Assembly: GCA_965230435.1 (NCBI GenBank)
Contig: CBDDLB010000006.1
Coordinates: forward strand, 1,928,270-1,992,269
DNA from: Bacteroidales bacterium
GTDB taxonomy: Bacteria > Bacteroidota > Bacteroidia > Bacteroidales > JBDKHP01
Reading direction: 5' to 3'
Length of the DNA: 64,000 nucleotides
Shown: positions 21,365 through 64,000 of the stretch, piece by piece
Position numbering within the stretch: the first letter of the stretch is position 1
How the letters are laid out: every line of letters begins with the position of its first letter
The notes under the pieces: model-generated
Told to the model about the DNA's origin: nothing
The model's input: the letters and a program-made list of their open reading frames with translations, nothing else
Databases searched by the model: none
Position numbers and translations under genes: made by a program

Positions 21365-21700
21365 GTATTCGTTTCTAAGAATCGCACTTTAAACATACAA
21401 CATTGCAAAAACACAACATTCTAATAATCAGAATATTTACCAAAAAGCAGAAATAAAAAGAATATACTACACTAATTTTATCTCATTTTTCTATAACAAA
21501 CTGTTTGTCAATACGTATCCTGTACCTATTACGAAGGAAGAAGAATACAAGGTTGAATATTTTTTGCAAGATTTAAGGCTACGGGCCTATTTAATGATCA
21601 AATAATCTATCAGAATATGAGCTATTTGTATTCTGAAAAGGTTAGATTAAATATGTCCACCTATCCGCTTACATTGCACTTTTTCGACAAACGAAGGAAC

Positions 21701-49300: not shown

Positions 49301-50302
49301 TCATTTTTTTATGAAATAAGCCAAAGTAAACCAATTGCGGCTATCAGTGAACACCTCTTCACTGGTCAGCTGTGCCCATTCTGCCATACGCATGATGCTC
49401 TTGATGTTGTACTTATGTGAATTCTCTGTATGTATCGTTTCTCCTTTTGCTATGTGGATAGGGTCGTCGAGTCCGTTGATGAATATCTTTATGCTGTTGA
49501 GTGCCCTCAGGTGCATTTCTATGCGTTTTTTCTTTGGATTGAAAAAAGCCTGATGCTCGAAATCTGAGGTTGAAAAATTGGATCCCACAAGCCTGTTGAC
49601 AACATTGAGAATGTTTTTGTTGAATTGTGCGGTGATGTTCTCCGCATCGTTGTACGCAGCATTCAAGGTTGCTAGGTTCTTTATCATGTCCATCCCCATT
49701 AGCAGACCATCGCCTTGGTTCATGATACTTCCGAGCGATTGCAGAAAGAATCTGGCTTCGTCCTCTGTAAGATTTCCTATCGTGCTGCCAAAGAAGCAGA
49801 ACAAACGCCTTCCATTGGAAGGAAGTACGTCTAACTGGCGGATGAAATCGGCAACAACTCCATGAATGCTTAATTCTGGGAATTTGACAGTGAGTTTATC
49901 GGCAGCCTGTTCTATTGCAGATTCGCTGATGTCGACAGGGTAATATTTCATTGTGGAACGGCTACGGGCAGGAACCTGCTCCAGAAAAAGGCTGATTTTG
50001 GAGTGATCGCCGCTGCCCAGCTCTATCAGTTGTAATCCGTCCCAACTAATGTTCATTAGCTTGCCTATATTTTTTAATATGGACTTTTCTGTGCGTGTTG
50101 GGTAGTACTCTTTTAATTGGGTTATCTGTTCAAACAGCTCTGAGCCTTTTTCGTCGTAAAAGAATTTTGATGAAATGTATTTTTTTTCGGCAAGTAAGCC
50201 TGTCAATATTTCATCTCGCACATTTTTTATGCCAATATCGGGCAAATAATTTTCTAGCCTTATCTCACCACGGATAAGGGTTTCTGCTGTAATGAAATTC
50301 AT
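49301..50302 (-). CDS. eanA: L-histidine N-alpha-methyltransferase (EgtD/EanA family)
   Basis: Start at ATG 50302 (MNFITAETL...), which avoids overlap with the upstream gene. EgtD-family segments are KYISSKFFYDEKGSELFEQITQLKEYYPTRTE and LIELGSGDHSK. Confidence 0.8.
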   Translation of the reverse strand: MNFITAETLIRGEIRLENYLPDIGIKNVRDEILTGLLAEKKYISSKFFYDEKGSELFEQITQLKEYYPTRTEKSILKNIGKLMNISWDGLQLIELGSGDHSKISLFLEQVPARSRSTMKYYPVDISESAIEQAADKLTVKFPELSIHGVVADFIRQLDVLPSNGRRLFCFFGSTIGNLTEDEARFFLQSLGSIMNQGDGLLMGMDMIKNLATLNAAYNDAENITAQFNKNILNVVNRLVGSNFSTSDFEHQAFFNPKKKRIEMHLRALNSIKIFINGLDDPIHIAKGETIHTENSHKYNIKSIMRMAEWAQLTSEEVFTDSRNWFTLAYFIKK

Positions 50303-50313
50303 AAAAGATTGGA

Positions 50314-50598
50314 TTATTCGTTCACCACTTGTACACCTTTCCAAAAGGCTACGTAATTTTTTATTTTTTCTGCCATTGCTTTGGGTTCTGGGTAATACCA
50401 GGCTCCGTCCTGATTGATTTCCCCATTTACATCGAGGGTGTAATAAGACGCAGTGCCCTTCCATGGACAAACCGTGTGAGTGTCGCTGGGTTTGAAGTAC
50501 TCTTTATGAATACTATCGGCAGGGAAATAGTGATTGTTTTCTACAACAAGTGTGTCGTTGCTTTCTGCAACGACTTGGCCATTCCAAATTGCTTTCAT
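50314..50598 (-). CDS. DUF427-domain protein
   Basis: 94 aa from ATG 50598 (MKAIWNGQVVAESNDTLVVENNHYFP...CPWKGTASYY...AFW), a typical DUF427 pattern. It sits between the eanB-like and eanA-like genes with 11-nt and 108-nt gaps. Confidence 0.75.
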   Translation of the reverse strand: MKAIWNGQVVAESNDTLVVENNHYFPADSIHKEYFKPSDTHTVCPWKGTASYYTLDVNGEINQDGAWYYPEPKAMAEKIKNYVAFWKGVQVVNE

Positions 50599-50706: not shown

Positions 50707-52035
50707 TTAACTGGTGATAAAAAGATCTGCCAGAACAGGACTGTCTGTTGCTTGTGGCTGCCCTGTTTCGTATGGGTTTTCTGGATCGTTGCTCCATTCG
50801 AACCAACCACCGTCAAAAACAGAAACACGTGGCCAGCCCATTAGCCAAGCGTTGTAGAAGGCCTCACTGCCTCGCCATCCTGTACCGCAATAAAATGCTA
50901 GGTGCTTGTCTGGAGTTATATCTGCAATTTTCCAGATGGCTTCTACTTCGTGAAATTCGCGTGTAGTGTGGTCTACGTTACGGTAGTTTTCCATGTGATA
51001 CGCATCAGAACCGCAATTACCGAAAATAGCTCCCGGAATACGACCTTTTTTCTCTATATAGTTGTAGCCGCTTACTTCGCCAAGGTATTCTGGGTAACTA
51101 CGCACACATACAATATCGGCGTCTTTGGCAGCAATCATAGCTTTAGCTTCTGGTACATCAACAGCTAATTCTGGCTGAGCTGGAATTGTAGCTCCAAAAT
51201 CTTGTACGGGAACTTTTTGTACATCATCGGCTGCAGTTTCATAGCCTGCATCTTTCCATGACTGAAAACCTCCATTTAAAATTCTTACATCTTTCACCCC
51301 AGCATACATCATAATAAAAGCATTGCGGATGGCTCCGATATGTCCTGCTGCACTTCCCGGGAATTCGTCGTCATTATCTGGATCCATGTATTTTCCATAA
51401 AGAACTACCGTAGTATCTGCTGTTATGCCATGGGCTTCCAATGCAGCTTTCAGCTCTTGTGGCGAACGACGGTTCCAAGTTTCTGGTGCTTCTAAAGCTA
51501 ATGTATCTATGTCTATTGCTCCCGGGATATGTCCGCTAAGGTATGCTTCACGGTTGCGGTAATGGGCATGACAAATTACAGTTTTTCCGCCCGAATGCGA
51601 AGGTGGTATATTGCCATCAACAATACTCTTTACCCAATCTGGATAAACAAGGCTTTTGTGACGTGCAAGTTGATCCATCGGTAGCTTCTCATCTGCAGCC
51701 CACTCTTCTACGAAATTATTATAAATGAAAATGTGTTCATAGCCTGCTTTTGTGAATAGATAAGCTACTTTTTCACTTTCTTCTGCTGTGTAGCCATAAA
51801 TGACAAGTTTATCTTCTGGTTGAATTTGTTTTGAGCGAACAACTTCAATCCAGTCCATATAGTTTGCCCATTTTGCGGGAAGCGATTTTGCACCTTTAAT
51901 GTGTCCGCCCCGCTGTTCGCCGTTCAATTGCCAACCATTATAAGCGTCTACTGGTCGAACATCAATAAATTTTGCGGTGTTTTCTTCTAAATGCTTTAAT
52001 ACTTCCTGTGTGGAAAGCTCATTGCGGTTTGTCAT
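50707..52035 (-). CDS. eanB: multi-rhodanese sulfurtransferase, EanB-like (ergothioneine C-S bond formation)
   Basis: 442 aa with rhodanese domains. The catalytic loop FYCGTGWRGSE lies near the C-terminus. Long stretches match my recollection of Chlorobium EanB (HAHYRNREAYLSGHIPGA, EFPGSAAGHIGAIR, SYPEYLGEVSGYNYI, GGWFEWSNDPENPYETG). Confidence 0.75.
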   Translation of the reverse strand: MTNRNELSTQEVLKHLEENTAKFIDVRPVDAYNGWQLNGEQRGGHIKGAKSLPAKWANYMDWIEVVRSKQIQPEDKLVIYGYTAEESEKVAYLFTKAGYEHIFIYNNFVEEWAADEKLPMDQLARHKSLVYPDWVKSIVDGNIPPSHSGGKTVICHAHYRNREAYLSGHIPGAIDIDTLALEAPETWNRRSPQELKAALEAHGITADTTVVLYGKYMDPDNDDEFPGSAAGHIGAIRNAFIMMYAGVKDVRILNGGFQSWKDAGYETAADDVQKVPVQDFGATIPAQPELAVDVPEAKAMIAAKDADIVCVRSYPEYLGEVSGYNYIEKKGRIPGAIFGNCGSDAYHMENYRNVDHTTREFHEVEAIWKIADITPDKHLAFYCGTGWRGSEAFYNAWLMGWPRVSVFDGGWFEWSNDPENPYETGQPQATDSPVLADLFITS

Positions 52036-52198
52036 GGTTATTTATTTATGTAGAATGGATTAGATACAGCTAGTAAAATTGCTGCATGATTGGTACTCTT
52101 AGTCGGAAATGTTATAGAATCCTTAGCAAGTTAGGGCTTTTTTTTGGGGTGGCAAGTTTAAGGTTTTGTGAACTTGTGACTTTATTATTCGTTATTAT

Positions 52199-52231
52199 AG
52201 ACCCGACGGTTTTCGAAAACCCGTCGGGTCT
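52199..52231. repeat. REP-like palindromic hairpin (left flank of RAYT-like gene)
   Basis: AGACCCGACGG-ttttcgaaaa-CCCGTCGGGTCT ends 1 nt before the ORF's first ATG. Confidence 0.85.
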
Positions 52232-52882
52232 ATGAATAATGGATCAATTTCAATTTGTATGGGCAACAAAAGAGAACCTTTCTTTCCAAATACAACTTAT
52301 CACATATGGAATCACGCAATTGAACCAACCAACATATTTTGCAACAAAGAGAATTATCGCTACTTTCTAGAACGCTATGCTCACTACATCAACCCAATTG
52401 CAGATACTTTTGCTTACTGTCTGATGCCTAATCATTTTCATATTTTATTGCAAATAAAGGGTGATGTTGAGCTTCGGGATTTCTTCTTTCCTGAAGAAAA
52501 GGAATCTTTGTCCGATTCTACTTTATCCAGACAGATTTCAATGCAGTTTGGCAAATTCTTCAATGCCTACGTAAAAGCTTACAACAAAAGTTATGAGCGC
52601 AAAGGTCCGTTGTTCTGGCAGGAACTTTATCGTAGAAGTGTGGAAACAGAGGAATATTTTCGGAATTTAGTTCATTACATTCACCACAATCCAGTTCATC
52701 ACGGTTTTGTTGATGATTTTCGAGATTGGGAGCATTCTTCGTATGCTAGTTTTCTTAGTCCCAAAATGAGTAAGCTAAAGCGGCAAGAGGTTTTGAAATG
52801 GTATGGTGATATTGATGAGTTTGTGATATTTCACCAGAAGGAAATTGAAGAACGGGTGGCAATTCAATTTGATGATTTATAA
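52232..52882 (+). CDS. Y1 (HUH) transposase, IS200-like / REP-associated tyrosine transposase (RAYT)-like
   Basis: HUH motif (MPNHFHILLQ) and a C-terminal Tyr motif (LVHYIHHNPVHHG). An alternative start is ATG 52259 (MGNKREPFF). Confidence 0.8.
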   Translation: MNNGSISICMGNKREPFFPNTTYHIWNHAIEPTNIFCNKENYRYFLERYAHYINPIADTFAYCLMPNHFHILLQIKGDVELRDFFFPEEKESLSDSTLSRQISMQFGKFFNAYVKAYNKSYERKGPLFWQELYRRSVETEEYFRNLVHYIHHNPVHHGFVDDFRDWEHSSYASFLSPKMSKLKRQEVLKWYGDIDEFVIFHQKEIEERVAIQFDDL

Positions 52883-52892
52883 CGTTTAACGG

Positions 52893-52927
52893 TAGTCCCG
52901 ACGGGTTTTAAAAACCCGTCGGGACTA
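52893..52927. repeat. REP-like palindromic hairpin (right flank of RAYT-like gene)
   Basis: TAGTCCCGACGGG-ttttaaaaa-CCCGTCGGGACTA lies 10 nt after the RAYT-like stop and 5 nt before the convergent gene's stop. Confidence 0.85.
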
Positions 52928-52931
52928 AAAA

Positions 52932-55900
52932 CTATCGGGCAGCAAATTCCTCATCAGCAAACAAAACCAAATAATCACCACCAAAATTAAAATGAGGAGC
53001 ATGGTTAGTGCCGTTGGTGATAAACATACGGAATTTCTCATCATTGGCAGCAGGTAACAAGCTCATTGCTTCATCGCGGGCTTCGCTGATTTCGTTGATG
53101 CCGTTTACACCCAATTGCTTCAACAGATCAACCGACTGTTCGAAGCTTGTGCGTTCGACTTTTGCAGAGCATTCAGCCTCGAAAGTTTGGATCATCCGTT
53201 GAGTGTTGGTGTAGCTTCCGCCCTGTTCCATCGGTAAGCTGGCAGGTAAGATAATGTCTGCCATGTGGGCGGTTTCGCTCATGAAATTATCTTGTACAAC
53301 AACAAAATCCGCTTTAGTAAACCAAGATCGGGCTTCTTCCGCATCTTCGGCTGTTCCTACAGGATCTTCGCCGAATACGAACAGGTTGCGAAGTTTTTCA
53401 CCTTCAAGAAGAGCCTCAACATCATTAATATTCGTTGGTAGCGCATCCACGTTCCAGCTTTCTTGCAGTTTTCCGGTCAACTGATCAATCGCTTGCTGGC
53501 CAACACCATTTGCTTCACAGACGCCCATATCCCAAAGACCTTGACTGTTGTTCTTCTCTTTGAGTGATAACAGGCCGCTTGCAGTTTTTCCCAATTTTCC
53601 TGTAATCAGAGCCAAGTTGAACAGTTCACGTGCAGTCTGAGACGATACATGATTTTCAGAAAAAACAAGCACGGCGTTTGACTCTTCGTTAAACAAATTT
53701 GCAAAATGCACCACTGTACCACGGCAACATGGAATTGCCTTATGCACCAGCTCTTCGTAATCCTCTTTCAGCAATTCAGTTTTGTATTCCTCAAAACCTT
53801 CTACACGGCCATCAATGAAGAACTGATTTTGCAGACCTTTGCGCAGCAAATAATGATTTACGGCGCGCACAAAGTAGTAATAACTTTCGATTTCGGTATA
53901 GTGATCCACTTTGTGCTTCATCGAAGATTCCTCTTTCGTCGTTAACAGCTCAATAGGAACACCGTATTGCATACGGGCAGAGTTGATGAAGAAGCTTGCA
54001 ACGCCATTTTCGTTATTAGGCTCAGAGCCGAACACAAAAATGCGGCTTGCATATTTTAATTCAGAAAAAGGAACATTTGCCGTACTGGTAAAACCATAAT
54101 CTCCACGCCCCAAATAATGGAAACTGCTGACATTGTTGGTTTTTGCTCCTGCACGAGCCAGCTTTTGGATCATGTATTGTTCCTCGTTAGTAAGACGTGC
54201 TCCTGCAAAGAATGCATTTTCGTCTGGTGAGACGGCCTTGATTTTGTTTTTTATTGTAGTATAAGCCTCTTCGAATGAAATCTCAACGAACCCGTCACCT
54301 TGCTTTTTCAAAGGTTTTGTAATACGCTTGCTATCGTTTAAATATGTGTAGCCAAAGCGGGGCAATTTACAGATATTACCATCTGCATTTACCATACCCT
54401 CAGCTCCATCTACCTTCATCACGTAACCGTTGTGGTGCTGAACTTCAATCTTACAACCAATAGAACAGTAGTTGCAGATGGTTTCGTAGCTTTCCAGCTC
54501 AACAGGCCCAGGTTTGAAGGTAACATTCTCAGAGATAGCACCCGTCGGACAAGTTGAGATACACATGCCGCACGATTCGCACTTAGTTTCCGTTAGGGAT
54601 TTTCCCATTGCAGGAGCAACATAGGTATCGAAACCGCGATTAATCAAGCCTAAAGCATCAGCCCCCACAACATCCTTACAGATGCGGATACAACGAGAAC
54701 ACAAAATACACTTGTTGCTATCGATTTCTACAAATGGGTGCGAAAAATCAACCTTATACTCTTTGAATTCTCCAGCGTAGCGGTTTTGCTCAACTCCGTA
54801 TTCAGAGGCATATTTCTTTAGATCGCAAGTAAAAAATTCTACACAGCCGCATTCAAGACAACGTTGAGCTTCTTCGCGTACCATCGGTTCGTCGTAGCCC
54901 AATTCCACCTCGTTGAAGTTGAAACGCTCAACAGGAGCCAATACTGGCATTTCTTTACGTTTCTGTGTATCGTAATTTGTTGCGTAATCTTTAGATTCCT
55001 GTGTTTTGAAATTCGATTTCTTCGAAAGGAACTCTTGAGGTTCAGGTTTCAATTCTTCCCCAGAAAGAAACTGTTGAACACTGCGTGCCGCAATCTTGGC
55101 CTGAGCGATAGATTCGATCAAAGTTGCAGGGCCTGTTACTCCATCACCGGCGGCGAAAAGCGAAGGGATACCAGTCTGTAAAGTTGCTTCATCAGCATTG
55201 ATATTGCCCCAACGGTTTACTTTCAGTTCGCCATTTTTTGCATGAGTGTTGATGCCTTCAAGGAACTCAACCTTCGTTTTCTGACCAATTGCCGCCAGCA
55301 CATAATCCAGTTTCAGCTCAAACTCAGAACCTTCTATTGGCACAGGACGGCGACGACCAGAAGCATCTGGTTCTCCAAGTTCCATACGCAACAACGTCAT
55401 CGACTTTAGGCATCCATTTTCATCCTTGTTGATTCTTGCAGGATTCGTAAGGAAAAGATATTCAATGCCCTCTTCTTTCGATTCGTGAATTTCGATTGGG
55501 TTGGCAGGCATTTCTTTTTCGGTACGACGATAAATCACGTAAGTTTTTTCAGCACCGCAGCGCATCGAAGTACGACAACAGTCCATAGCTGTGTTTCCTC
55601 CACCTACAACAGCAACTGTTTTACCAGAGAAATCGTATTTCTGACCTGTCATTTCCATATTTCTCAGAAAATCTATTCCCGACAGAACACCCTCAGCATC
55701 ATCGCCGTCAACACCAACTTTTGTTCCTGCCTGCGATCCGATTGTCAGCACAACAGCATCGTAATTGTCCTGAAGGTTTTTGTAGCTTAGGTTGTCGCCA
55801 AGTTTTTGATTGAAGAAGATGTTCGCTCCAATCTCGCGGATACAGTTTATTTCCCGATCCAACAGATCGTTTGGCAAACGGTATTCTGGAATACCATAGC

Positions 55901-56603
55901 GCAACATTCCGCCTGCATGTGAACTGGCTTCGTAAACATCGCACTGATGACCTTTTTGTTGTAGGAAATAAGCCGTGGAAATTCCGCCCGGGCCAGCTCC
56001 GATAATCGCAACTTTCTTCCCTGTAGATGACGCAACTTCTGGTATATAATGTTTTTCTGATTGTAAATCGTAATCCGCAGCAAAACGCTTCATGTAGTCG
56101 ATGCCCACAGGTGCGCCTTCGTCCATTAAATTACGACGGCAGGCAACTTCGCAAGGACGCACGCACACACGTCCGCAGATAGCTGGAAGTGGGTTCACTT
56201 CTTTGATCAGTGCAGTGGCTTCTTCGTACATCCCCTTGTCGATAAGCGAGATGTAGCCCTGAACATCAACTCCTGCGGGACAGGTGTCTTTACACGGCGC
56301 CTGACAGTCGGCATAGTGATTACTGAGCAGTAAATCCAAAGCTGTCTTTCGCGCCTTGCGTACCTTTTCGTTATCTGTGTTGATCACCATGCCTTCCACT
56401 ACACGCGTAGAACATGATGTCTGCAAACTACGCGCCCCCTCTACCTCTACAACGCATACAAAACACGAAGAATAGGGTTCAAGGCGCGGATCGTGACATA
56501 GCGTCGGAATTTCTACTCCATGACGCTCGGCTGCTTTTAGTATGGTTTCCCCGTCGTAGGCTTTTACTATTTTGCCGTTTAGGGTTATATTTAGTTCTTT
56601 CAT
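52932..56603 (-). CDS. fusion oxidoreductase: [2Fe-2S] ferredoxin + GltD-type NAD(P)H/FAD module + [4Fe-4S] clusters + truncated molybdopterin-oxidoreductase-like (NuoG-like) domain
   Basis: Domains N- to C-terminus: 2Fe-2S (TLCHDPRLEPYSSCFVCVVEV); GltD-like Fe-S plus dinucleotide folds (KVAIIGAGPGGISTAYFL, GGMLRYGIPEYRLP, KTVAVVGGGNTAMDC); 2x[4Fe-4S] (CILCSRCIRIC, CESCGMCISTCP); MopB Fe4S4 (CNYCSIGC). The MopB body ends without an obvious C-terminal MGD-binding barrel. Confidence 0.75.
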   Translation of the reverse strand: MKELNITLNGKIVKAYDGETILKAAERHGVEIPTLCHDPRLEPYSSCFVCVVEVEGARSLQTSCSTRVVEGMVINTDNEKVRKARKTALDLLLSNHYADCQAPCKDTCPAGVDVQGYISLIDKGMYEEATALIKEVNPLPAICGRVCVRPCEVACRRNLMDEGAPVGIDYMKRFAADYDLQSEKHYIPEVASSTGKKVAIIGAGPGGISTAYFLQQKGHQCDVYEASSHAGGMLRYGIPEYRLPNDLLDREINCIREIGANIFFNQKLGDNLSYKNLQDNYDAVVLTIGSQAGTKVGVDGDDAEGVLSGIDFLRNMEMTGQKYDFSGKTVAVVGGGNTAMDCCRTSMRCGAEKTYVIYRRTEKEMPANPIEIHESKEEGIEYLFLTNPARINKDENGCLKSMTLLRMELGEPDASGRRRPVPIEGSEFELKLDYVLAAIGQKTKVEFLEGINTHAKNGELKVNRWGNINADEATLQTGIPSLFAAGDGVTGPATLIESIAQAKIAARSVQQFLSGEELKPEPQEFLSKKSNFKTQESKDYATNYDTQKRKEMPVLAPVERFNFNEVELGYDEPMVREEAQRCLECGCVEFFTCDLKKYASEYGVEQNRYAGEFKEYKVDFSHPFVEIDSNKCILCSRCIRICKDVVGADALGLINRGFDTYVAPAMGKSLTETKCESCGMCISTCPTGAISENVTFKPGPVELESYETICNYCSIGCKIEVQHHNGYVMKVDGAEGMVNADGNICKLPRFGYTYLNDSKRITKPLKKQGDGFVEISFEEAYTTIKNKIKAVSPDENAFFAGARLTNEEQYMIQKLARAGAKTNNVSSFHYLGRGDYGFTSTANVPFSELKYASRIFVFGSEPNNENGVASFFINSARMQYGVPIELLTTKEESSMKHKVDHYTEIESYYYFVRAVNHYLLRKGLQNQFFIDGRVEGFEEYKTELLKEDYEELVHKAIPCCRGTVVHFANLFNEESNAVLVFSENHVSSQTARELFNLALITGKLGKTASGLLSLKEKNNSQGLWDMGVCEANGVGQQAIDQLTGKLQESWNVDALPTNINDVEALLEGEKLRNLFVFGEDPVGTAEDAEEARSWFTKADFVVVQDNFMSETAHMADIILPASLPMEQGGSYTNTQRMIQTFEAECSAKVERTSFEQSVDLLKQLGVNGINEISEARDEAMSLLPAANDEKFRMFITNGTNHAPHFNFGGDYLVLFADEEFAAR

Positions 56604-56741
56604 GACTTTTTGATGGGTTTCTCTTCGGAATAATTACTAGTTATGAACAATGCACATCCTTGAACATTCAGATGTTTTTTGCTGATGCTTCGGGTAAGGT
56701 GTTTGAAATTGTTGGGTGATTTGTTTCTGTTAGTATTATTC

Positions 56742-56875
56742 GCCCCCTATATCCCCCTAAAGGGGGGACTCAAATACTATATGTTTCTGAAAATTCATTA
56801 CCTCAAACTATTTTCAGAAAGGCTTGTCAAGAAAAAATCACTAACCAAGTCCCCCTTCAGGGGGATATAGGGGGC
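56742..56875. mobile_element. MITE-like 134-bp element with 28-29-nt terminal inverted repeats
   Basis: Left arm GCCCCCTATATCCCCCTAAAGGGGGGACT; right arm AGTCCCCCTTCAGGGGGATATAGGGGGC. Each arm contains its own CCCCC/GGGGG hairpin. The inner part holds a second inverted pair, TTTCTGAAAAT/ATTTTCAGAAA. Confidence 0.7.
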
Positions 56876-56900
56876 AAACCAACAACCAATCAACCAAAAA

Positions 56901-58679
56901 TCAACTAAGCCCAATAGCATCAAACTTACACTTAGAATAACAAGCCCCACACTTAATACACAACTCCTGATCAATCAGGTGCACAGCCTTACGCTCACCG
57001 CTGATAGCATCCGTAGGACAATTCTTAGCACAAACCGTACAGCCCGTGCAGGCATCAGCAATAATGGTGTAAGTGAGCAGTTGAGTACAACTTTTCGCAG
57101 GACACTTCTTGTCGCGGATATGAGCCTCGTATTCATTGCGGAAATACTTGATTGTCGTCAGCACAGGATTCGGAGCAGTCTGACCAAGTCCACAGAGCGA
57201 ACTATCCTTGATCTGGTGAGAAAGCTCCTCCAATGTTTCAATATCACTCTCAACACCTTCACCTTTAGTAATGCGCGTAAGAATTTCCAACATACGCTTC
57301 GTGCCGATACGGCAGAACGTACACTTGCCACACGATTCCTTTTGCGTAAAATCCAAGAAGAAACGCGCCATATCCACCATGCACGTCGTTTCGTCCATCA
57401 CCACCATGCCACCAGAGCCCATAATCGCACCCGTCGCATTCACTTTATCATAATCCACAGGAGTATCGGCCAGATATTCAGGCACACAGCCACCAGAAGG
57501 TCCACCGAGCTGAACAGCCTTAAACTCCTTGCCGCCCTGAATACCACCGCCCAGTTTGAAGATAATATCGCGGATGCTCATTCCCATTGGCACTTCCACC
57601 AGACCGCCATGGTTCACCTTTCCAGTCAAAGCAAACACCTTTGTACCTTTGGATTTCTCAGTGCCATATTTGCTGTACGAATCAGCACCATTGAGCAGAA
57701 TGTAAGGAATGTTCGAGTACGTTTCAACATTGTTGATGTTCGTAGGCTGGCTCCAGAGCCCCTTTTCGGCAGGAAACGGAGGACGTTTTCGTGGCATACC
57801 ACGCTCACCCTCAATAGAAGCTATAAGAGCAGTTTCCTCGCCACAGACAAATGCCCCAGCACCCTCTTTCACATACAGGTCGAAGTTGAAACCTACAATT
57901 CCACAAGCATTCTCTCCAAGATACCCCTTCGCACGAGCCTGATCAAGCGCAAGGTTCAGACGCTTAATCGCCAGCGGATACTCAGCACGGCAATAAATAA
58001 CACCGCCCGTAGCCTGCATAGCATAAGCCCCAATGATCATCCCTTCGATAACAGCATGCGGGTCGCCCTCCAAAATCGAACGATCCATAAACGCCCCAGG
58101 ATCACCCTCGTCGGCATTACAGAGCACATACTTTTCGTCGGACTTATTATTGTAAGCAAACTTCCACTTCATTCCTGTTGGGAAACCGCCGCCGCCACGT
58201 CCTCGGATGCCCGAATCCAGAACAGTCTGTATCACATCCGTTGGCGGAGTTTTATCCGTTGCTATCTTTTTAATGGCCACATAGCCATCATTAGCCTCAT
58301 AATTCTCAATCGATTCGGGGTCGATGTGCCCACAGTGGCGCAATGCAATTTTCACCTGCCCCTCCCAGTAAACATCATCATCCGTCGTGAACATGTCCGA
58401 TTTCACCACATACCCCTTCACCACTTCCCCCAGATGCACATGCTTCTCAACCAATTCCGTCGCACGCATCTCATCCACCTCGCCATACAGGTAGCTGCCA
58501 TCCTCGTCAATCACCTCAACAAGAGGCTCGCGGTAACACATACCCACGCAAGAGGTCTTCTCAAGTTCAAACTCGTAATTCTCCTTGTCACGCAGCTCTT
58601 CCAGCCTAGCGTACACCTTATTGGCACCCGCAGCTATGCCGCAACTGCCAAGCCCTACAATTACTTTTGGCTTTGCCAT
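56901..58679 (-). CDS. NuoF/HydB-like NADH-binding FMN Fe-S subunit with extra N-terminal [2Fe-2S] and C-terminal 2x[4Fe-4S] domains
   Basis: Start at ATG 58679 (MAKPKVIVGLGSCGIAAG). Motifs: FMN GRGGGGFPTGMKW; N3-cluster CGKCTFCRIG; C-terminal CTGCTVCAKNCP and CIKCGACYSKC. Confidence 0.88.
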   Translation of the reverse strand: MAKPKVIVGLGSCGIAAGANKVYARLEELRDKENYEFELEKTSCVGMCYREPLVEVIDEDGSYLYGEVDEMRATELVEKHVHLGEVVKGYVVKSDMFTTDDDVYWEGQVKIALRHCGHIDPESIENYEANDGYVAIKKIATDKTPPTDVIQTVLDSGIRGRGGGGFPTGMKWKFAYNNKSDEKYVLCNADEGDPGAFMDRSILEGDPHAVIEGMIIGAYAMQATGGVIYCRAEYPLAIKRLNLALDQARAKGYLGENACGIVGFNFDLYVKEGAGAFVCGEETALIASIEGERGMPRKRPPFPAEKGLWSQPTNINNVETYSNIPYILLNGADSYSKYGTEKSKGTKVFALTGKVNHGGLVEVPMGMSIRDIIFKLGGGIQGGKEFKAVQLGGPSGGCVPEYLADTPVDYDKVNATGAIMGSGGMVVMDETTCMVDMARFFLDFTQKESCGKCTFCRIGTKRMLEILTRITKGEGVESDIETLEELSHQIKDSSLCGLGQTAPNPVLTTIKYFRNEYEAHIRDKKCPAKSCTQLLTYTIIADACTGCTVCAKNCPTDAISGERKAVHLIDQELCIKCGACYSKCKFDAIGLS

Positions 58680-58777
58680 GGTTTCGATTTTATTCGAATA
58701 ACTGAATAATAGACTCATAGAATAATTGAATGTCAGTTCGGACAATCATTCTATTATTCATTTATTCCCTTATTCAA

Positions 58778-59299
58778 TTATTGTTTTCTCCTGATGTCCT
58801 TTACCACCTTAACAGCCGCCTTGCCATCCAGCTTACCATAAGTTTCCTCTCCGATCATCATCACGGGAGCAAGAGAGCAGCACCCAAGGCAGGCAACCGA
58901 TTCCAGCGTGAACAGCCCGTCGGGCGTAGTTTCGCCATCCTCTATCTCCAAGGCATCCGCAAGCGCTTCCGTAACCTTCGATGCATTCTGCACGTGGCAG
59001 GCCGTTCCATGACACACCTTTACGATGTGCTTGCCCACAGGCTTCAACCTGAACTGAGCATAAAAAGTAGCCACACCATAAAGGTCGCTTTCCTTAAGCC
59101 CCGTTTCCGATGCAATTTTCTCGAAAGCAACAGTCGGGATATAATTGTAAATCTCCTGAACCCCCTGCAACAAAGGGATCGTACTACCTTTTTTGTTTCT
59201 GAATTTCTCTATCAGCGGATCAATCAGTTTAAGGTCTATCTCCCCATTGGCAGGCAAAGATTGGGGAGATTCGCTGGTCAACACTCGTTTTACTCGCAT
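58778..59299 (-). CDS. NuoE/HydC-like thioredoxin-fold [2Fe-2S] subunit
   Basis: Cys pattern CHGTACHV ... CLGCCSLAPV in 173 aa. Confidence 0.85.
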   Translation of the reverse strand: MRVKRVLTSESPQSLPANGEIDLKLIDPLIEKFRNKKGSTIPLLQGVQEIYNYIPTVAFEKIASETGLKESDLYGVATFYAQFRLKPVGKHIVKVCHGTACHVQNASKVTEALADALEIEDGETTPDGLFTLESVACLGCCSLAPVMMIGEETYGKLDGKAAVKVVKDIRRKQ

Positions 59300-59552
59300 G
59301 TTGTGCTATAGTTTAGTGTCCGTATATCCAAAAGTCAATCTAACGAATAAAGTAAATGAGAATTTCATTTAGAAACATTTTATATTAAGGCACTTAAGGG
59401 ACATTTCATGACACATGGGGAGTTTTGAGTTTCGGAGTTTTGAGTTTTGTTCACTTTCGCCAGCTCACTGGTCATTAACCCTGATAACTCGCCAGCCAAT
59501 TAATAATTACGAACTAATAATTAATAATTTGAGGAGCAAAGCTCCTGTGCTT

Positions 59553-59712
59553 CCCCCAGCAGCGTCGCGCTTTCCGCTACAAGTCCTCGCCACGGGAGCT
59601 GTTCCACATCGGCCCGGCAGTCTATTCCGCTCCCGCTACATAGCTGCCAGACCGTGTGTCACTAGCCCCCGTGGCTGTGGGCTTTCCGCTGCAATCGCGG
59701 CTAATTTTAGAG
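59553..59712. repeat. family-B GC-rich structured repeat, copy 2 (inverted)
   Basis: The reverse complement reads GCGATTGCAGCGGAAAGCCCACAGCCACGGGGGC...GGAATAGACTGCCGGGCCGATGTGGAACAGCTCCCGTGGCGAGGACTTGTAGCGGAAAGCGCG. Confidence 0.75.
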
Positions 59713-59770
59713 CGTTGTCCTTTGCTCCAACATTGCTTTTTTTGGTAGGGTTGATAATGATCTGATAGTT

Positions 59771-59803
59771 AGACCCGATGGGTTTTGAAAACCTATCGGG
59801 TCT
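59771..59803. repeat. orphan REP-like hairpin of the RAYT-flanking type
   Basis: AGACCCGATGGG-ttttgaaaa-CCTATCGGGTCT has the same stem family as 52199..52231. Confidence 0.8.
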
Positions 59804-60611
59804 GCTATGGGTTGCTATCGTTCATGAAAACATTTACTGGTTGATATAACTTAATGGCACTATATAAGTGTATTTTATCTACTTTAGGAGAACTAAAGCA
59901 AGAGACAGCACATACTGCAATCAACTGTTATAGTTTATTTTGACATTATTGCATAACCTAAAAAATATTATGAATACAGAAATAAAAGCTTTACAAGTAA
60001 AATATGGAGACTGTTTTATTATTAAAACATTCGATAATAAGGGCGAAGAATTTAACATTTTGATGGATGGTGGTCCCGGTAATTCATTTTTAGCGGTATT
60101 GAAAAGAGAATTACAAGACAAACCTAAAATTGACTTGTTGATAATTACTCATATAGATGATGACCATATTAAGGGGTTAAACAATTTTCTAAAGAGTTCT
60201 CTGGCTGGAAAGGTTAAAATTGAAAATGTTCTAATTAATGCAAAAAACCTAAAACGGTTTGCTGATGGAAAAGAACTATCTTATGCATCAGTAATTGATT
60301 TTGAAAAGAAAATTCTTAAAAAATATCCTGACATAAATATTTACGGTGATTGTGTATGTGACGAACCTGATAGAAATTCAGTTTTATTTCGAAATGAGAG
60401 CATTAAAATAAATATTCTTTCCCCAAATAGAGAGTGTCTGACATATTTGTACACTGAAGAGGATAAGCGTTATAAGGTTAATAAATGGCATGATGTCGAA
60501 TTAGAACATTTAAAGGAAACAGGACAGTTGAGTGAACCTGTTGAGCAGGATGAAGAAACTATTCCTGACATATATGAATTAGCTCAAGCTGATGATATTG
60601 ATAAAAATAAG

Positions 60612-61571
60612 TAGAGGTGTTTACTTAGAAACAATTATATTTGCATGAAATAAAAACAATTATGCAAGAATTTCACGGAGAAGATCTCATAAAGTTCATA
60701 GAACGTTTTCCAGACGACAATAGCTGCTATCTTTATCTGTCTGAAATCAAGTGGACTAACGGTTATAAATGTAAAAAGTGCGGTCATACACACTACAGTA
60801 GCGGAAAAAAACATGAACGTACCTGTACCCTTTGTAAACACAGGGAAAGTACAACGGCAGGCACTCTTTTCCACAAGTTGAAATTCGGCATCCGCAAAGC
60901 TTTCCTGATCTGTTTTGAGCTCAGTGCCACGACCAAAGGGATGTCCTCCTCCCAGCTTTCGGAACGTTACGGCATCTCAAGGAAAACAGCCTGGGCATTC
61001 AGCCATAAAGTCAGGCTGGCAATGGAGAGTCAAGGAGATCAGCCGGTTGAAGGGACAGTCCATGTGGACGAGTTTGTTTTCGGTGGCAAAGAGAACGGCA
61101 AACAGGGGCGCAGTTATGATACAAAAAAGAAAAAAGCGGTCTGTGCCGTGGAACTTGATGACAAACAGCAGATTAAAAGGGTGTATTCACAGAAGATCGA
61201 AGATTTTTCTTCCAAATCTCTGCGGGGGATTTTTGAAAAACATATCAGCAGGCAGGCCCAGGTGGTCACTGATGAGTGGAGGGGCTACAGACCGGTCGCT
61301 AAAGATTATAATATTGAGCAGATACCCAGTAGGAAAGGGAAGAATTTCATGCAGCTGCACAATGTGATACATCAGATCAAAAGCTGGATCAGGACGAATT
61401 TTTCCTGGATCGCACCAAAACACACCGATAAATATTTAGCTGAATATTCTTTTAGGATCAACAGATCTATTTTCAAGGGCTCTATATTTCATAAGCTCAT
61501 TGAACGTATGACAAATAGACCTCCTGTGAAATTTATTGACATAGTGGATTGTACTTAAATAAACACCTCTA
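60612..61571 (+). mobile_element. IS1595-family insertion sequence (960 bp) with 8-bp target duplication
   Basis: Inverted ends TAGAGGTGTTTACTTA / TAAATAAACACCTCTA and direct repeats AAAATAAG at 60604..60611 and 61572..61579. The element holds a single transposase ORF. Confidence 0.85.
60662..61558 (+). CDS. IS1595-family (ISXO2-like) DDE transposase with N-terminal zinc ribbon
   Basis: Zn-ribbon (CKKCGHTHY...CTLCKH) followed by an ISXO2-like region (HVDEFVFGG...VTDEWRGY). Confidence 0.85.
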   Translation: MQEFHGEDLIKFIERFPDDNSCYLYLSEIKWTNGYKCKKCGHTHYSSGKKHERTCTLCKHRESTTAGTLFHKLKFGIRKAFLICFELSATTKGMSSSQLSERYGISRKTAWAFSHKVRLAMESQGDQPVEGTVHVDEFVFGGKENGKQGRSYDTKKKKAVCAVELDDKQQIKRVYSQKIEDFSSKSLRGIFEKHISRQAQVVTDEWRGYRPVAKDYNIEQIPSRKGKNFMQLHNVIHQIKSWIRTNFSWIAPKHTDKYLAEYSFRINRSIFKGSIFHKLIERMTNRPPVKFIDIVDCT

Positions 61572-62001
61572 AAAATAAGTATTTGTCAAATGACAGGTAC
61601 AATGCTTCATCGTTAGCATTTATACTTGAAACCCCAGACTTCAAAGGTTTATTTCTTGGCGATGCTTGGCCTTCAGTGATAAAAACTTCCCTTGATAGTA
61701 TTTTTAATGACTTTCCCGTTACTTTTGATTTAATCAAAGTATCACATCATGGAAGTCATTATAACACAACAAAGTATTTAATGGAATTAATAAACAGTGA
61801 GCATTATGTTGTTTCAACCGATAGTTCTCGCTTTGGACATCCAGATATTGAGGCGATAGCAAAGATTATTTGCGCCCCTCAAAGACTTGATAAAAAGATA
61901 AAACTTTGGTTTAATTACCAATTGGAACACATTAGTAAGGTAACGAATAGTCAAGAGGATATATATAAGTTTAAATGCGAATTTGACAAACAAATCATCG
62001 A

Positions 62002-64000
62002 ATGGAAAGAGACCTGTTAAAATATATCTGTGTTAAAGTATCAATTGTGATTGACGGAAATACAAAATTGTTTGGTAGCGGAGCGATGTTTAGGCATAAC
62101 GGAAAAACTTATGTTATTACTGCAGAGCATTGTATTCATGGAGTAAATACAGAGCGATACGAAAACACAACTACTGAAAATATACAAATTCAACACAGGC
62201 TAAATGACCAAGGGGAATTTACCGAAATAGAACCATTCGAAATCGTATTCTTTGACAAAACTTCGGACACAGCATTGTTGGAAGTAAACTACGAAGGTCA
62301 AATTCCTTTTGATATTCATTTTGCAACAGAACTATATTCCAACAATCTCTTTCTAAGAGGTTACCCAAGATGGCTTAAAGGAGATGAAGCAGCAACACAT
62401 CAAGGTATTTTAAAAGAAGAACAAGTATCCAGTTTTATTCTTTTTTCAAGTGATTTTGTTGACACCACAAGATTGAAGGATACGGAAGAATTTACAAAAA
62501 ACTTATCTGGCAGCGGTGTTTTTATCAAAGAAAAAGGAAAAATAACATTAGTCGGCATTGTTTCTGAGCTTAGGGAAGAAGAAGGGATATTAGGGCAGGT
62601 AAAATGCTCAAAACTAAGTAGTATTTTTCAAGAAATAGAGGTTTTTTTTAATAATAATCCTTTGCTTTTGGCATTAAAAAGGCAGAACGATAGACAATTA
62701 GAAAAGCAGATTAATTCAACAAAATACATTAGGAACACATTTATTGAGACAAGAGAACTAAAAGATAATCTCAGATATTTCTGTGCACCTTTCGATTTTA
62801 TTGATAAAACCATTTCGGAGTACCAAAGAATTGACCTAAAACATTTTAATCGCAAACAGGAATTAGCAGGTCGGGAACCAATAGAAAACAATATCAATAG
62901 CATTTTAAAAGATGTTTCTACACTTGACTTTCGAACTTTTGGACAATACATAAATGAGCTTACGGAATACACAAAGTCTCAAATAAAGGAGTTTGAAAAA
63001 ACACCAACTAATGATGCTTCATATGCCAAGCGAAAGTTTGAAAACAAACTAAATGAATTCAAGTATTACAGCAAACGAGTGTTATTAATCCAAGACAATG
63101 CGGGACAAGGAAAAACCAATATTGTTTGTGATTTGGTTGATAAAGTAATTAGTAGAAGAAGTATTCCTTGTGTTTTCAGCACAGGTCAAGGTTACGAGTT
63201 AAATGCAGAAGAAATAAAGCAGTCATTATCAAGACAAATCTATCCTAATGATAACGTAGATTTTAATGATATACTCAAGGAAATTGCACCTTATTGTGAA
63301 CTGAACCACTCACCATTTATAATAATAATTGATGGTCTAAACGAAAATTCAAATCCGCTTTTCAATAGAAAATTAGAGGAGTTTATTTCTGCGGTATTGG
63401 AGTTTCATAATATTAAGGTTATCCTAACATGTAGAACTGAGTATTTTGCGCACACATTTAAAAATCTTCTTTCAGCATCTTTCAAGGAAGAAATAATAAC
63501 GATTACTGACCTAAAAGGACAATTCAATGAAAATCAGAATGAAATTCTTTTTAACGCCTATTTAGACCATTTTAAAGTTGAAATTGCTGAAGTTTCAGAT
63601 GAAGTCTTCAAGCAACTGACAAATAATTTCTTAATGCTAAGAATATTTAGTGAGGCTCATGAAGGTGAACAGTTGCAGAATGTAAAAGATATTTATAAAC
63701 AAAAACTATTTCAACATTATTTCAAAAATAAAATCGAAAACATTACTGAAAATAATAATGAAATTGAGAGAGAAATTTTTGTTCTATTTGAGAGATTGAT
63801 TTCTTACATGATTGTCAAACAGGAATTCACAGATATTCCAATAGATAAAGTCTTAACACCAGAAATAAATAAGGGTGTTATAGATAAGTTTGTTTATGAA
63901 AATGTTTTAATTCGAAAAGATATTAGTGAGAACCCAGGTTCATTTTTTGGAAAGAGTGAGGTTTTGAATTTCACTTTCGATGAGTTTAGGGACTATCTAA
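62002..64000 (+). CDS. trypsin-like serine protease fused to NACHT/STAND P-loop NTPase (5' partial view; ORF continues past window end)
   Basis: I translated this ORF by hand because it is not in the supplied track. It is open from ATG 62002 for 666 codons to the window edge. Protease triad contexts are VITAEHC, SDTALLEV and LSGSGVF. Walker A is QDNAGQGKTN and the NACHT-style Walker B is PFIIIIDGLNEN. The start overlaps the MBL gene's stop by 19 nt. Confidence 0.8.
   Translation, partial: MERDLLKYICVKVSIVIDGNTKLFGSGAMFRHNGKTYVITAEHCIHGVNTERYENTTTENIQIQHRLNDQGEFTEIEPFEIVFFDKTSDTALLEVNYEGQIPFDIHFATELYSNNLFLRGYPRWLKGDEAATHQGILKEEQVSSFILFSSDFVDTTRLKDTEEFTKNLSGSGVFIKEKGKITLVGIVSELREEEGILGQVKCSKLSSIFQEIEVFFNNNPLLLALKRQNDRQLEKQINSTKYIRNTFIETRELKDNLRYFCAPFDFIDKTISEYQRIDLKHFNRKQELAGREPIENNINSILKDVSTLDFRTFGQYINELTEYTKSQIKEFEKTPTNDASYAKRKFENKLNEFKYYSKRVLLIQDNAGQGKTNIVCDLVDKVISRRSIPCVFSTGQGYELNAEEIKQSLSRQIYPNDNVDFNDILKEIAPYCELNHSPFIIIIDGLNENSNPLFNRKLEEFISAVLEFHNIKVILTCRTEYFAHTFKNLLSASFKEEIITITDLKGQFNENQNEILFNAYLDHFKVEIAEVSDEVFKQLTNNFLMLRIFSEAHEGEQLQNVKDIYKQKLFQHYFKNKIENITENNNEIEREIFVLFERLISYMIVKQEFTDIPIDKVLTPEINKGVIDKFVYENVLIRKDISENPGSFFGKSEVLNFTFDEFRDYL

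Follow-up and report, generated by a model that had tools for sequence, protein, structure and literature searches.

What is the function of an operon that combines NuoE-, NuoF- and NuoG-like proteins with an inserted flavoprotein module and a formate dehydrogenase (FDH)-like domain? This question is raised by a three-gene locus at positions 52932-59299 of a 64,000-nt stretch of DNA from a Bacteroidales bacterium (assembly GCA_965230435.1, contig CBDDLB010000006.1, positions 1,928,270-1,992,269; the whole stretch is hereafter the window, and its first letter is position 1). An open reading frame (ORF) list together with Pfam/NCBIfam profile scans placed three ORFs in this interval, all on the minus strand and in the same orientation, for a small subunit (A), a flavoprotein subunit (B) and a large subunit (C). 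The locus very probably encodes a soluble heterotrimeric flavin/Fe-S enzyme that belongs to the Nfn-Bfu subtype (NfnABC = StnABC) of the Bfu family. An earlier note on this DNA had recognised three co-oriented NuoE/NuoF/NuoG-like genes, which the ORFs and Pfam matches bear out, and had proposed a Stn-type bifurcating transhydrogenase, a proposal that is strongly supported at the sequence level by the best matches to StnABC/NfnABC and by conserved diagnostic motifs.

Relationship to solved NfnABC/StnABC complexes

Each subunit was searched by sequence against all solved structures, and the top three matches were the same complexes for all three subunits, aligned essentially end to end: S. ovata StnABC (8oh5; large subunit to 8oh5_C, E=2.9e-229; B to 8oh5_B, 8.7e-258; small subunit to 8oh5_A, 6.9e-51), C. 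saccharolyticus NfnABC (9bov; 9bov_A, 4.7e-234; 9bov_B, 1.9e-248; 9bov_C, 1.8e-54) and T. sibiricus NfnABC (9n5u; 9n5u_A, 4e-189; 9n5u_B, 2.2e-254; 9n5u_C, 3.5e-46). Subunit B is 64.5% identical to StnB, residues 1-697 of the large subunit are 46.7% identical to StnC, and the order of the large-subunit domains is identical to that in StnC/NfnA. Activity and mechanism have been established for the enzymes of these three organisms (PMC7483475, PMC10482914, PMC11829005, PMC12018979). The NuoE-like, NuoF-like and large NuoG-like genes are intact and full length relative to their orthologues in the related-loci comparison; for subunit B the listed ORF spans 56901-58745, and the start that matches the homologues is the ATG at 58679 (MAKPKVIVGLGSCG...). 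Conservation was scored as the fraction of orthologues with the same residue as the window protein, in sets of 66 orthologues for the small subunit, 68 for B and 72 for the large subunit, and the family signatures were invariant or nearly so across these sets.

The closest described system, StnABC of S. ovata (PDB 8oh5/8oh9; Kremp 2020, PMC7483475; Kumar 2023, PMC10482914), has the same genes in the same order. The 1172-aa StnC comprises an N-terminal [2Fe-2S] domain, a GltD module (102-565) and a NuoG domain with an inactive FdhF-like fold (683-1172) (PMC10482914), and the window protein shares this layout ([2Fe-2S], GltD insert, NuoG Fe-S, inactive FdhF-like part), the Lys (K170 in StnC, K172 here), the Arg (R239/R242) and the cluster motifs. 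The two systems differ in their hosts (a Bacillota acetogen versus a member of the Bacteroidota), in the FDH-like domain, which is ~50 residues longer and less eroded here, in position 114 (Val for Cys114) and in the 297-nt spacer between genes B and C. For the large and small subunits, the strongest match overall is C. saccharolyticus NfnABC (PDB 9bov/9bp5; PMC11829005); its NfnA, built of an N-terminal domain, an NfnL-like and an Fdh/NuoG-like domain (PMC11829005), shares the three Cys and the Lys that ligate cluster A7 as well as a Mo-site-free Fdh/NuoG-like C-terminal domain, whereas the last 200 residues are very weakly similar (15-17 bits). The archaeal enzymes T. sibiricus NfnABC and T. 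litoralis NsoABC (9n5u; PMC12018979, PMC9304861) have the same BfuBC core, GltD insertion and Lys-ligated A7, but their large subunit is ~260 residues shorter with a truncated FDH-like part, so that the alignment ends at residue 816, and the archaeal enzyme, a monomer, has no A4 cluster cysteines.

Classical NfnAB/NfnSL (T. maritima 4ylf, P. furiosus 5jca) carries out the net reaction that is predicted here, and its NfnB/L subunit is the homologue of residues 99-520 in the window protein. Bifurcation in NfnSL takes place at the FAD of its own large subunit, which is paired with a small FNR-like partner, whereas here the corresponding FAD would be non-bifurcating and the BfuBC core would bifurcate. 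The NfnL-like part lies inside the 1223-aa protein instead of forming a free-standing NfnB/L of ~470 aa with an FNR-like NfnA/S, and no NfnS/NfnA-type gene was found among the operon neighbours in the window. A HydABC-type enzyme finds no counterpart either: the Pfam matches of the large subunit include no Fe-hydrogenase large-subunit domain, which would carry the H-cluster, and matches to HydA structures are limited to its N-terminal Fe-S parts. The earlier note had regarded a MopB- rather than HydA-type scaffold as a variant of the Stn logic; this does not hold, since canonical StnC already has an inactive FdhF-like domain (PMC10482914), as does C. saccharolyticus NfnA (PMC11829005), and the HydA-scaffold idea was therefore mistaken. 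An independent fusion origin of the FDH-like domain, distinct from Stn, was considered and rejected: StnC/NfnA show the same insertion point, split motifs and Lys ligand and have likewise lost both the Mo ligand and domain IV. The locus thus represents a new, uncharacterised Bacteroidota member of a structurally solved enzyme class, and an ordinary one: enzyme class, structure and bifurcation site have already been described, so it opens no new mechanistic question.

Large subunit: split NuoG motif and GltD insert

Profile scans resolved the large subunit into Fer2_4 (residues 2-78), Fer4_20 (99-182), Pyr_redox_2 (196-502), Fer4_Nqo3 (623-690), Molybdop_Fe4S4 (705-756) and Molybdopterin (PF00384; 760-1150), so that the anatomy described in the earlier note proved correct when checked by Pfam/NCBIfam domain parsing. 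The N-terminal [2Fe-2S] domain has Cys36, Cys47, Cys50, Cys64 and His96, all invariant in the 72 orthologues. The GltD-like module does lie within the 1223-aa subunit as had been claimed, and more precisely it interrupts the NuoG His-cluster motif: the PF10588 match is confined to residues 85-100, and the two motif halves, H96xxxC100xxxC104xxxC108P and C582xxC585xC587x5C593, flank the insert and are invariant throughout. The same split motifs (HxxxCxxxCxxxCP and CxxCxCx5C) were described by Kremp et al. (PMC7483475). A GltD module inserted into a NuoG/HydA-type Fe-S region is thus present in full.

The insert itself is closely similar to NfnL structures (4ylf_B, E=1.8e-100; 5jca_L, E=8e-87). 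It contains an FAD fold (GAGPGG, residues 202-207), an NADPH fold (GGGNTA, residues 334-339, followed by YRR) and two predicted [4Fe-4S] clusters, ligated by Cys100, 104, 108, 143, 147, 151 and 155 together with Lys172. The predicted ligands of cluster A7 (Cys108, Cys147, Cys151 and Lys172) align to Cys108/147/151/Lys170 of the C. saccharolyticus enzyme, to K170 of StnC and to K165 of the T. sibiricus enzyme; Lys172 is invariant in the 72 orthologues, and the three-Cys-plus-Lys arrangement of A7/C7 is thereby recovered by alignment. Arg242, which aligns to R239 of StnC, is also family-invariant. Position 114 is Val here and Cys114 in StnC and the C. saccharolyticus enzyme; the characterised T. 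sibiricus enzyme has Val as well. Beyond the insert, the cysteines of the NuoG-type 2x[4Fe-4S] domain (Cys632-642 and Cys675-685) are invariant, and the large subunit holds the full 27 cysteines required for its clusters.

Small subunit and flavoprotein subunit

The small subunit is a thioredoxin-like [2Fe-2S] protein (PF01257, E=7e-49). The ligands predicted for its cluster C1 (Cys96, Cys101, Cys137 and Cys141) are invariant in the 66 orthologues, as expected of a BfuC-type subunit with a C-terminal thioredoxin-like C1 domain and in line with the NuoE/HydC-like assignment made earlier on this DNA.

Subunit B has the Pfam domains Complex1_51K, SLBB and NADH_4Fe-4S and a C-terminal 2x[4Fe-4S] domain (residues 536-589), the latter being the defining trait of bifurcating BfuB subunits (PMC9304861). 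In its end-to-end alignment with StnB/NfnB every Cys is conserved, and all cluster cysteines are invariant in the 68 orthologues: the cysteines of B1, B3 and B4 are kept, as are the conserved His/Cys of a predicted Zn (B2) site. The complete set of BfuB features (FMN/NADH core, B1, thioredoxin-like N-terminus, B2 site and C-terminal 2x[4Fe-4S] domain) can therefore be read from this protein. For the NuoF/HydB-like, Bfu-type subunit of the earlier note, the FMN core and the C-terminal 2x[4Fe-4S] domain stand. The extra N-terminal [2Fe-2S] is not certain, because the N-terminal domain has just three invariant Cys at the classical motif positions and because the homologous metal site (B5) varies, being [2Fe-2S] in S. 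ovata and Zn in the C. saccharolyticus and T. sibiricus enzymes.

The FDH/MopB-like domain

The C-terminal part of the large subunit keeps a predicted [4Fe-4S] site (Cys710, 713, 717 and 745) and MopB domains II-III, and shares the MopB fold with metal-dependent FDHs such as E. coli FdhH (1aa6/1fdi), HDCR FdhF (7qv7), B. subtilis ForCE YjgC (8rqz) and FdsA (6tg9). Similarity to these enzymes covers the [4Fe-4S] domain and domains II-III at E ~1e-46 to 1e-51, ~25% identity and Foldseek E ~1e-31. In contrast to them, it lacks the Sec/Cys ligand, the catalytic His/Arg pair, the Lys44 equivalent and domain IV. Aligning the MopB segment to FdhH, a check proposed in the earlier note for the Mo-ligand and molybdopterin guanine dinucleotide (MGD)-contact residues, showed all four positions replaced (SeCys140 by Gly832, His141 by Arg833, Arg333 by Lys1015 and Lys44 by Leu747), and the ligand column reads G/N/E/H/D/T/A/F and never Cys in the 72 orthologues, in agreement with the note's observation that no Cys occupies this position. 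StnC and C. saccharolyticus NfnA likewise lack a Cys in the aligned ligand region. The MGD-binding C-terminal barrel was also correctly judged absent: the FdhH alignment stops near residue 551/715, hence the domain IV barrel is missing from the large subunit; the Pfam scan found no match to PF01568 (Molydop_binding, domain IV) in it; and matches to FDH structures reach only about residue 510 of 743. The orthologues are 1195-1245 aa long, and 28% of them have lost the MopB [4Fe-4S] cysteines. The GltD and Fe-S parts are conserved at ~0.7, MopB domains II-III at 0.50 and the tail at 0.26.

An AlphaFold2 model covered residues 561-1223, and only its MopB part (predicted local distance difference test score, pLDDT, ~90) was used, model residues 1-141 of the Fe-S region being unreliable (pLDDT <50). 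A Foldseek search of the MopB model against the PDB returned both metal-dependent FDHs and the chains 8oh5_C and 9bov_A. We therefore find neither the ligand, His and Arg triad of Mo/W FDHs (G832, R833 and K1015 instead) nor the domain IV of a Mo/W bis-MGD enzyme, and we do find the Mo/W-site-free C-terminal Fdh/NuoG-like domain of the bacterial long form. We infer that the domain is a cofactor-less remnant that would act as a structural or oligomerisation scaffold. In the solved bacterial homologues the FDH-like domain mediates tetramer contacts and carries off-pathway clusters (PMC10482914, PMC11829005). This agrees with the degenerate scaffold of the earlier note, which had argued against an FDH; the ligand, the His/Arg pair and domain IV are lost, and the homologous Stn has no formate:methyl viologen activity (PMC7483475).

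The MopB part scores 178 bits against true FDHs, 124 bits against StnC and 94 bits against C. saccharolyticus NfnA, and several motifs of the former MGD region are nearly invariant (K1015-E-K-N-N-x-Q-G, VQD, TETA (T1111), LP (P1120) and E1126..GS.TNTQ). By these comparisons, the FDH-like domain of Bacteroidota/Ignavibacteriota NfnA appears clearly less eroded, and nearer real FDHs, than the domains of the solved Bacillota enzymes.

Distribution and conserved neighbourhood in relatives

In a word-index homologue search, 8000 candidates were scored, at least 7997 of them with E <= 1e-50. The best 120 of these 8000 measure 1223-1261 aa, show 61-65% identity to the large subunit and do not differ from it in Pfam architecture; the named ones among them are mostly from Bacteroidales or from Bacteroidota metagenome-assembled genomes, and their annotations vary. 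A survey of the Bfu family had reported Nfn-type BfuB sequences 'also in Synergistetes and Bacteroidetes' (PMC9304861). We compared 80 related genome loci from Bacteroidales, other Bacteroidota and Ignavibacteriota, one of which (L001) is labelled Thiohalospira. The A-B-C order is kept in nearly all of them where the contig extends far enough, with a B-C gap of ~15-85 nt.

In 57 of the 80 related loci, the large-subunit gene is followed on its own strand, after ~67 nt, by a gene for a 151-aa rubrerythrin/ferritin-like diiron protein (PF02915, E=8e-17; an example is given in Table 1), which may belong to the operon as a fourth gene in the Bacteroidota/Ignavibacteriota clade. Together with the higher score against FDHs and the nearly invariant motifs, this gene is the reason for considering that a nucleotide- or pterin-type ligand might still be bound by the FDH-like domain, or that an additional partner might dock there, and that the clade might thereby have a fourth redox outlet, an idea to which we give only a slim chance. 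If it were true, the clade would gain an outlet beyond plain transhydrogenation, for example peroxide reduction, at best in the relatives, as the window lacks the rubrerythrin gene. None of the eight flanking genes of the window recurs beside the operon in the 80 related loci, so that the local context gives no clue to function.

The main value of the assignment lies in annotation. The sources name these proteins 'formate dehydrogenase major subunit', 'molybdopterin-dependent oxidoreductase', 'FAD-dependent oxidoreductase' or NuoE/F, and through such misnaming formate oxidation or a complex I NADH module could be assigned in error when the metabolism of anaerobic Bacteroidota and Ignavibacteriota is reconstructed. 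Recognition as NfnABC/StnABC instead points to the way in which the pools of NADH, NADPH and ferredoxin are kept in balance in these organisms.

Table 1 Coordinates of the operon, its domains and other features (window positions unless stated otherwise).
Feature	Position	Strand	Description
Small subunit A (StnA = NfnC/BfuC)	58778-59299	-	173 aa, NuoE/HydC-like
Subunit B, flavoprotein (StnB = NfnB/BfuB)	56901-58679	-	592 aa, NuoF-like, Bfu-type
B N-terminal thioredoxin-like domain	58380-58679	-	thioredoxin-like stretch
B NuoF-type FMN/NADH core and B1 [4Fe-4S] cluster	about 57090-58322	-	Pfam
B C-terminal 2x[4Fe-4S] ferredoxin-like domain	56904-57089	-	Pfam
B-C intergenic spacer	56604-56900		297 nt
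Palindromic element in B-C spacer	56739-56878		140 nt
Inverted arms of the palindromic element	56739-56766; 56851-56878		28 nt each
Large subunit C (StnC = NfnA/BfuA)	52932-56603	-	1223 aa
C residues 1-98: N-terminal [2Fe-2S] ferredoxin domain and start of split His-cluster motif	56310-56603	-	PF13510, E=5e-20
C residues 99-520: inserted GltD/NfnL-type module	55044-56309	-	PF14691 + PF07992
C residues 521-700: linker, second motif half, NuoG-type 2x[4Fe-4S] domain	54504-55043	-	PF22117 Fer4_Nqo3, E=5e-12
C residues 701-1223: Fdh/MopB-like domain	52935-54503	-	PF04879 + PF00384
Rubrerythrin-like gene, example from related locus L002	7030-7485 (of L002)	+	PF02915
REP-associated tyrosine transposase-like ORF	52232-52882	+	216 aa
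REP hairpins bracketing the transposase-like ORF	52193-52229; 52896-52926
Third REP hairpin copy	59773-59811		upstream of operon
Flavo-1 RNA motif match	59559-59706	-	RF01705
ORF overlapping the Flavo-1 match	59415-59765		116 aa, probably spurious
Avs1a-like gene, apparently split	59940-62020	+	AVAST type 1, MBL fold
Avs1a-like N-terminal fragment	59940-60614	+	profile positions 3-88 of 387
IS1595 transposase	60641-61558	+	between Avs1a-like fragments
Avs1a-like C-terminal fragment	61583-62020	+	profile positions 251-379
EgtD-type methyltransferase and adjoining multi-rhodanese protein	49301-50470; 50707-52035	-	TIGR03438, E=2e-105; 442 aa
Three tandem paralogues	21617-25750; 26390-30571; 31092-35087	+	~1330-1390 aa

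Alternative explanations

The annotations of many homologues ('formate dehydrogenase major subunit' or 'molybdopterin-dependent oxidoreductase') would suit a genuine NAD(P)-linked Mo/W FDH of the FdsABG/FdhF type, in which the MopB part is catalytic and the GltD and NuoEF modules serve as electron outlets, and so would the lead of true FDHs over StnC and NfnA in bit score and the near-invariance of several former MGD-region motifs. Against such an enzyme stand the four substitutions at the ligand, His, Arg and Lys positions, the ligand column without Cys, the missing PF01568/domain IV in a family whose every orthologue ends at 1195-1245 aa, the orthologues without MopB [4Fe-4S] cysteines and the result for Stn, whose formate:methyl viologen activity was assayed and found absent (PMC7483475); we consider an FDH extremely improbable. 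Scarcely more tenable is the view that the three proteins are the NADH-input (NuoEFG) module that is missing from the 11-subunit complex I-like enzyme of Bacteroidota, docked on its membrane arm. To our knowledge, Bacteroidota nuo operons lack nuoEFG, and the three proteins are indeed NuoE-, NuoF- and NuoG-like. Their NuoE/NuoF/NuoG profile scores nevertheless fall under the curated cut-offs with the exception of one NuoE model, the large subunit has a GltD insertion and B the Bfu-specific extra domains, no nuo membrane-subunit genes were found beside the operon in the window or among the recurrent flanking clusters of the 80 loci, and the nearest relatives are soluble enzymes.

A non-bifurcating NAD(P)H oxidoreductase, whether an NADPH:acceptor enzyme, an NADH:NADP transhydrogenase/diaphorase or a sulfur/oxygen or metal reductase, in which ferredoxin is not obligatorily coupled, is also quite unlikely. 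It would recall the original 'NsoABC' and SfrAB assignments, as the homologous T. litoralis NsoABC was, according to its citation in PMC7483475, first described as an NADPH sulfur/oxygen oxidoreductase, and Stn/Nfn-Bfu enzymes show strong uncoupled NADPH:viologen activities (PMC10482914, PMC12018979). Subunit B, however, keeps the whole BfuBC core including the C-terminal ferredoxin-like domain, which is absent in NuoF, FdsB and HoxF (PMC9304861), and the S. ovata, C. saccharolyticus and T. sibiricus homologues, when assayed, were all tightly coupled to NAD+ and ferredoxin. Several points weigh against the NfnABC/StnABC assignment itself. The identity of the large subunit to the characterised enzymes is moderate (~47% over residues 1-697) and far lower in the FDH-like part; our literature search found no biochemical characterisation of any Bacteroidota member; the direction in vivo and the partner, ferredoxin or flavodoxin, are both putative for this enzyme; the rubrerythrin-like gene of the 57 relatives was not found anywhere in the 64-kb window; and the structured 297-nt B-C spacer could, in this genome, weaken large-subunit expression or uncouple it.

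Putative mechanism and physiological role

For an Nfn-Bfu enzyme, a mechanism can be transferred by homology from the solved complexes (PMC10482914, PMC11829005, PMC12018979), each step being conditional for this locus. NADPH would reduce the non-bifurcating FAD in the GltD/NfnL-like insert by hydride transfer, and from this FAD single electrons would exit via the Lys-ligated A7 (Cys108, Cys147, Cys151 and Lys172), then A6 and then the NuoG-type clusters, to arrive at B1 and the FMN of subunit B. Bifurcation would take place at the B1-FMN-C1 'flavobicluster' formed by B and the small subunit: high-potential electrons would reduce NAD+ at the FMN, and low-potential electrons would travel through the [2Fe-2S] cluster C1 of the small subunit to B3/B4 in the C-terminal 2x[4Fe-4S] domain of B and on to ferredoxin. 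The predicted net reaction is 2 NADPH + NAD+ + Fd(ox) <-> 2 NADP+ + NADH + Fd(red), where Fd is ferredoxin. NAD+-dependent ferredoxin reduction by NADPH and its reverse have been shown for the S. ovata, C. saccharolyticus and T. sibiricus homologues only (PMC7483475, PMC11829005, PMC12018979).

In a fermentative Bacteroidota cell, the enzyme would probably run in the confurcating direction (NADH + reduced ferredoxin -> 2 NADPH) to serve biosynthesis. Such a role in NADPH supply fits the presence, in 10 related loci, of a gene for a 448-aa glutamate dehydrogenase-like protein (judged by inspection of the sequence and not by a Pfam run) at a median of ~88 nt upstream of the operon.

Mobile elements around the operon

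The B-C spacer, unusually long at 297 nt next to the ~15-85 nt of the related loci, contains a palindromic element whose inverted arms are 93% complementary, with an inner 11-nt inverted repeat, and the RNA fold has a free energy of -97.9 kcal/mol (z = -6.6). The arm sequence is absent from all 81 other loci, so the palindrome is not a conserved regulatory element; it is probably a miniature inverted-repeat transposable element (MITE)/REPIN-like insertion and not part of the enzyme, as its sequence features suggest. Convergent with gene C and directly downstream of it, an ORF similar to repetitive extragenic palindromic (REP)-associated tyrosine transposases (NF047646, E=1.7e-17, under the curated cut-off) sits where the 57 relatives carry the rubrerythrin-like gene, bracketed by near-identical GACCCGACGGGTTTT..AAAACCCGTCGGGTC REP hairpins. 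Given the spacer palindrome, the REP-transposase-like gene with its hairpins and a copy of IS1595 ~1.3 kb upstream of A, the operon sits in a region reshaped by mobile elements. The IS1595 copy appears to split an Avs1a-like gene with a metallo-beta-lactamase (MBL) fold (Table 1).

Other features of the window

An Rfam scan of the whole window at gathering thresholds gave no family match. A match to the Flavo-1 RNA motif falls just below threshold (40.2 bits versus a gathering score of 42; E=4e-7), ~260 nt upstream of the small-subunit gene and in its orientation; the ORF that it overlaps is probably spurious, and the motif was not found beside the operon in 7 related loci. The gene pair formed by an EgtD-type histidine N-alpha-methyltransferase and a multi-rhodanese protein may resemble the EanA/EanB pair of the anaerobic ergothioneine pathway. 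Further away, the three tandem paralogues combine Reg_prop beta-propeller repeats with Y_Y_Y, GAF and SpoIIE/PP2C phosphatase domains, and the window also holds genes of a type IX secretion system (T9SS) and of TonB receptors.

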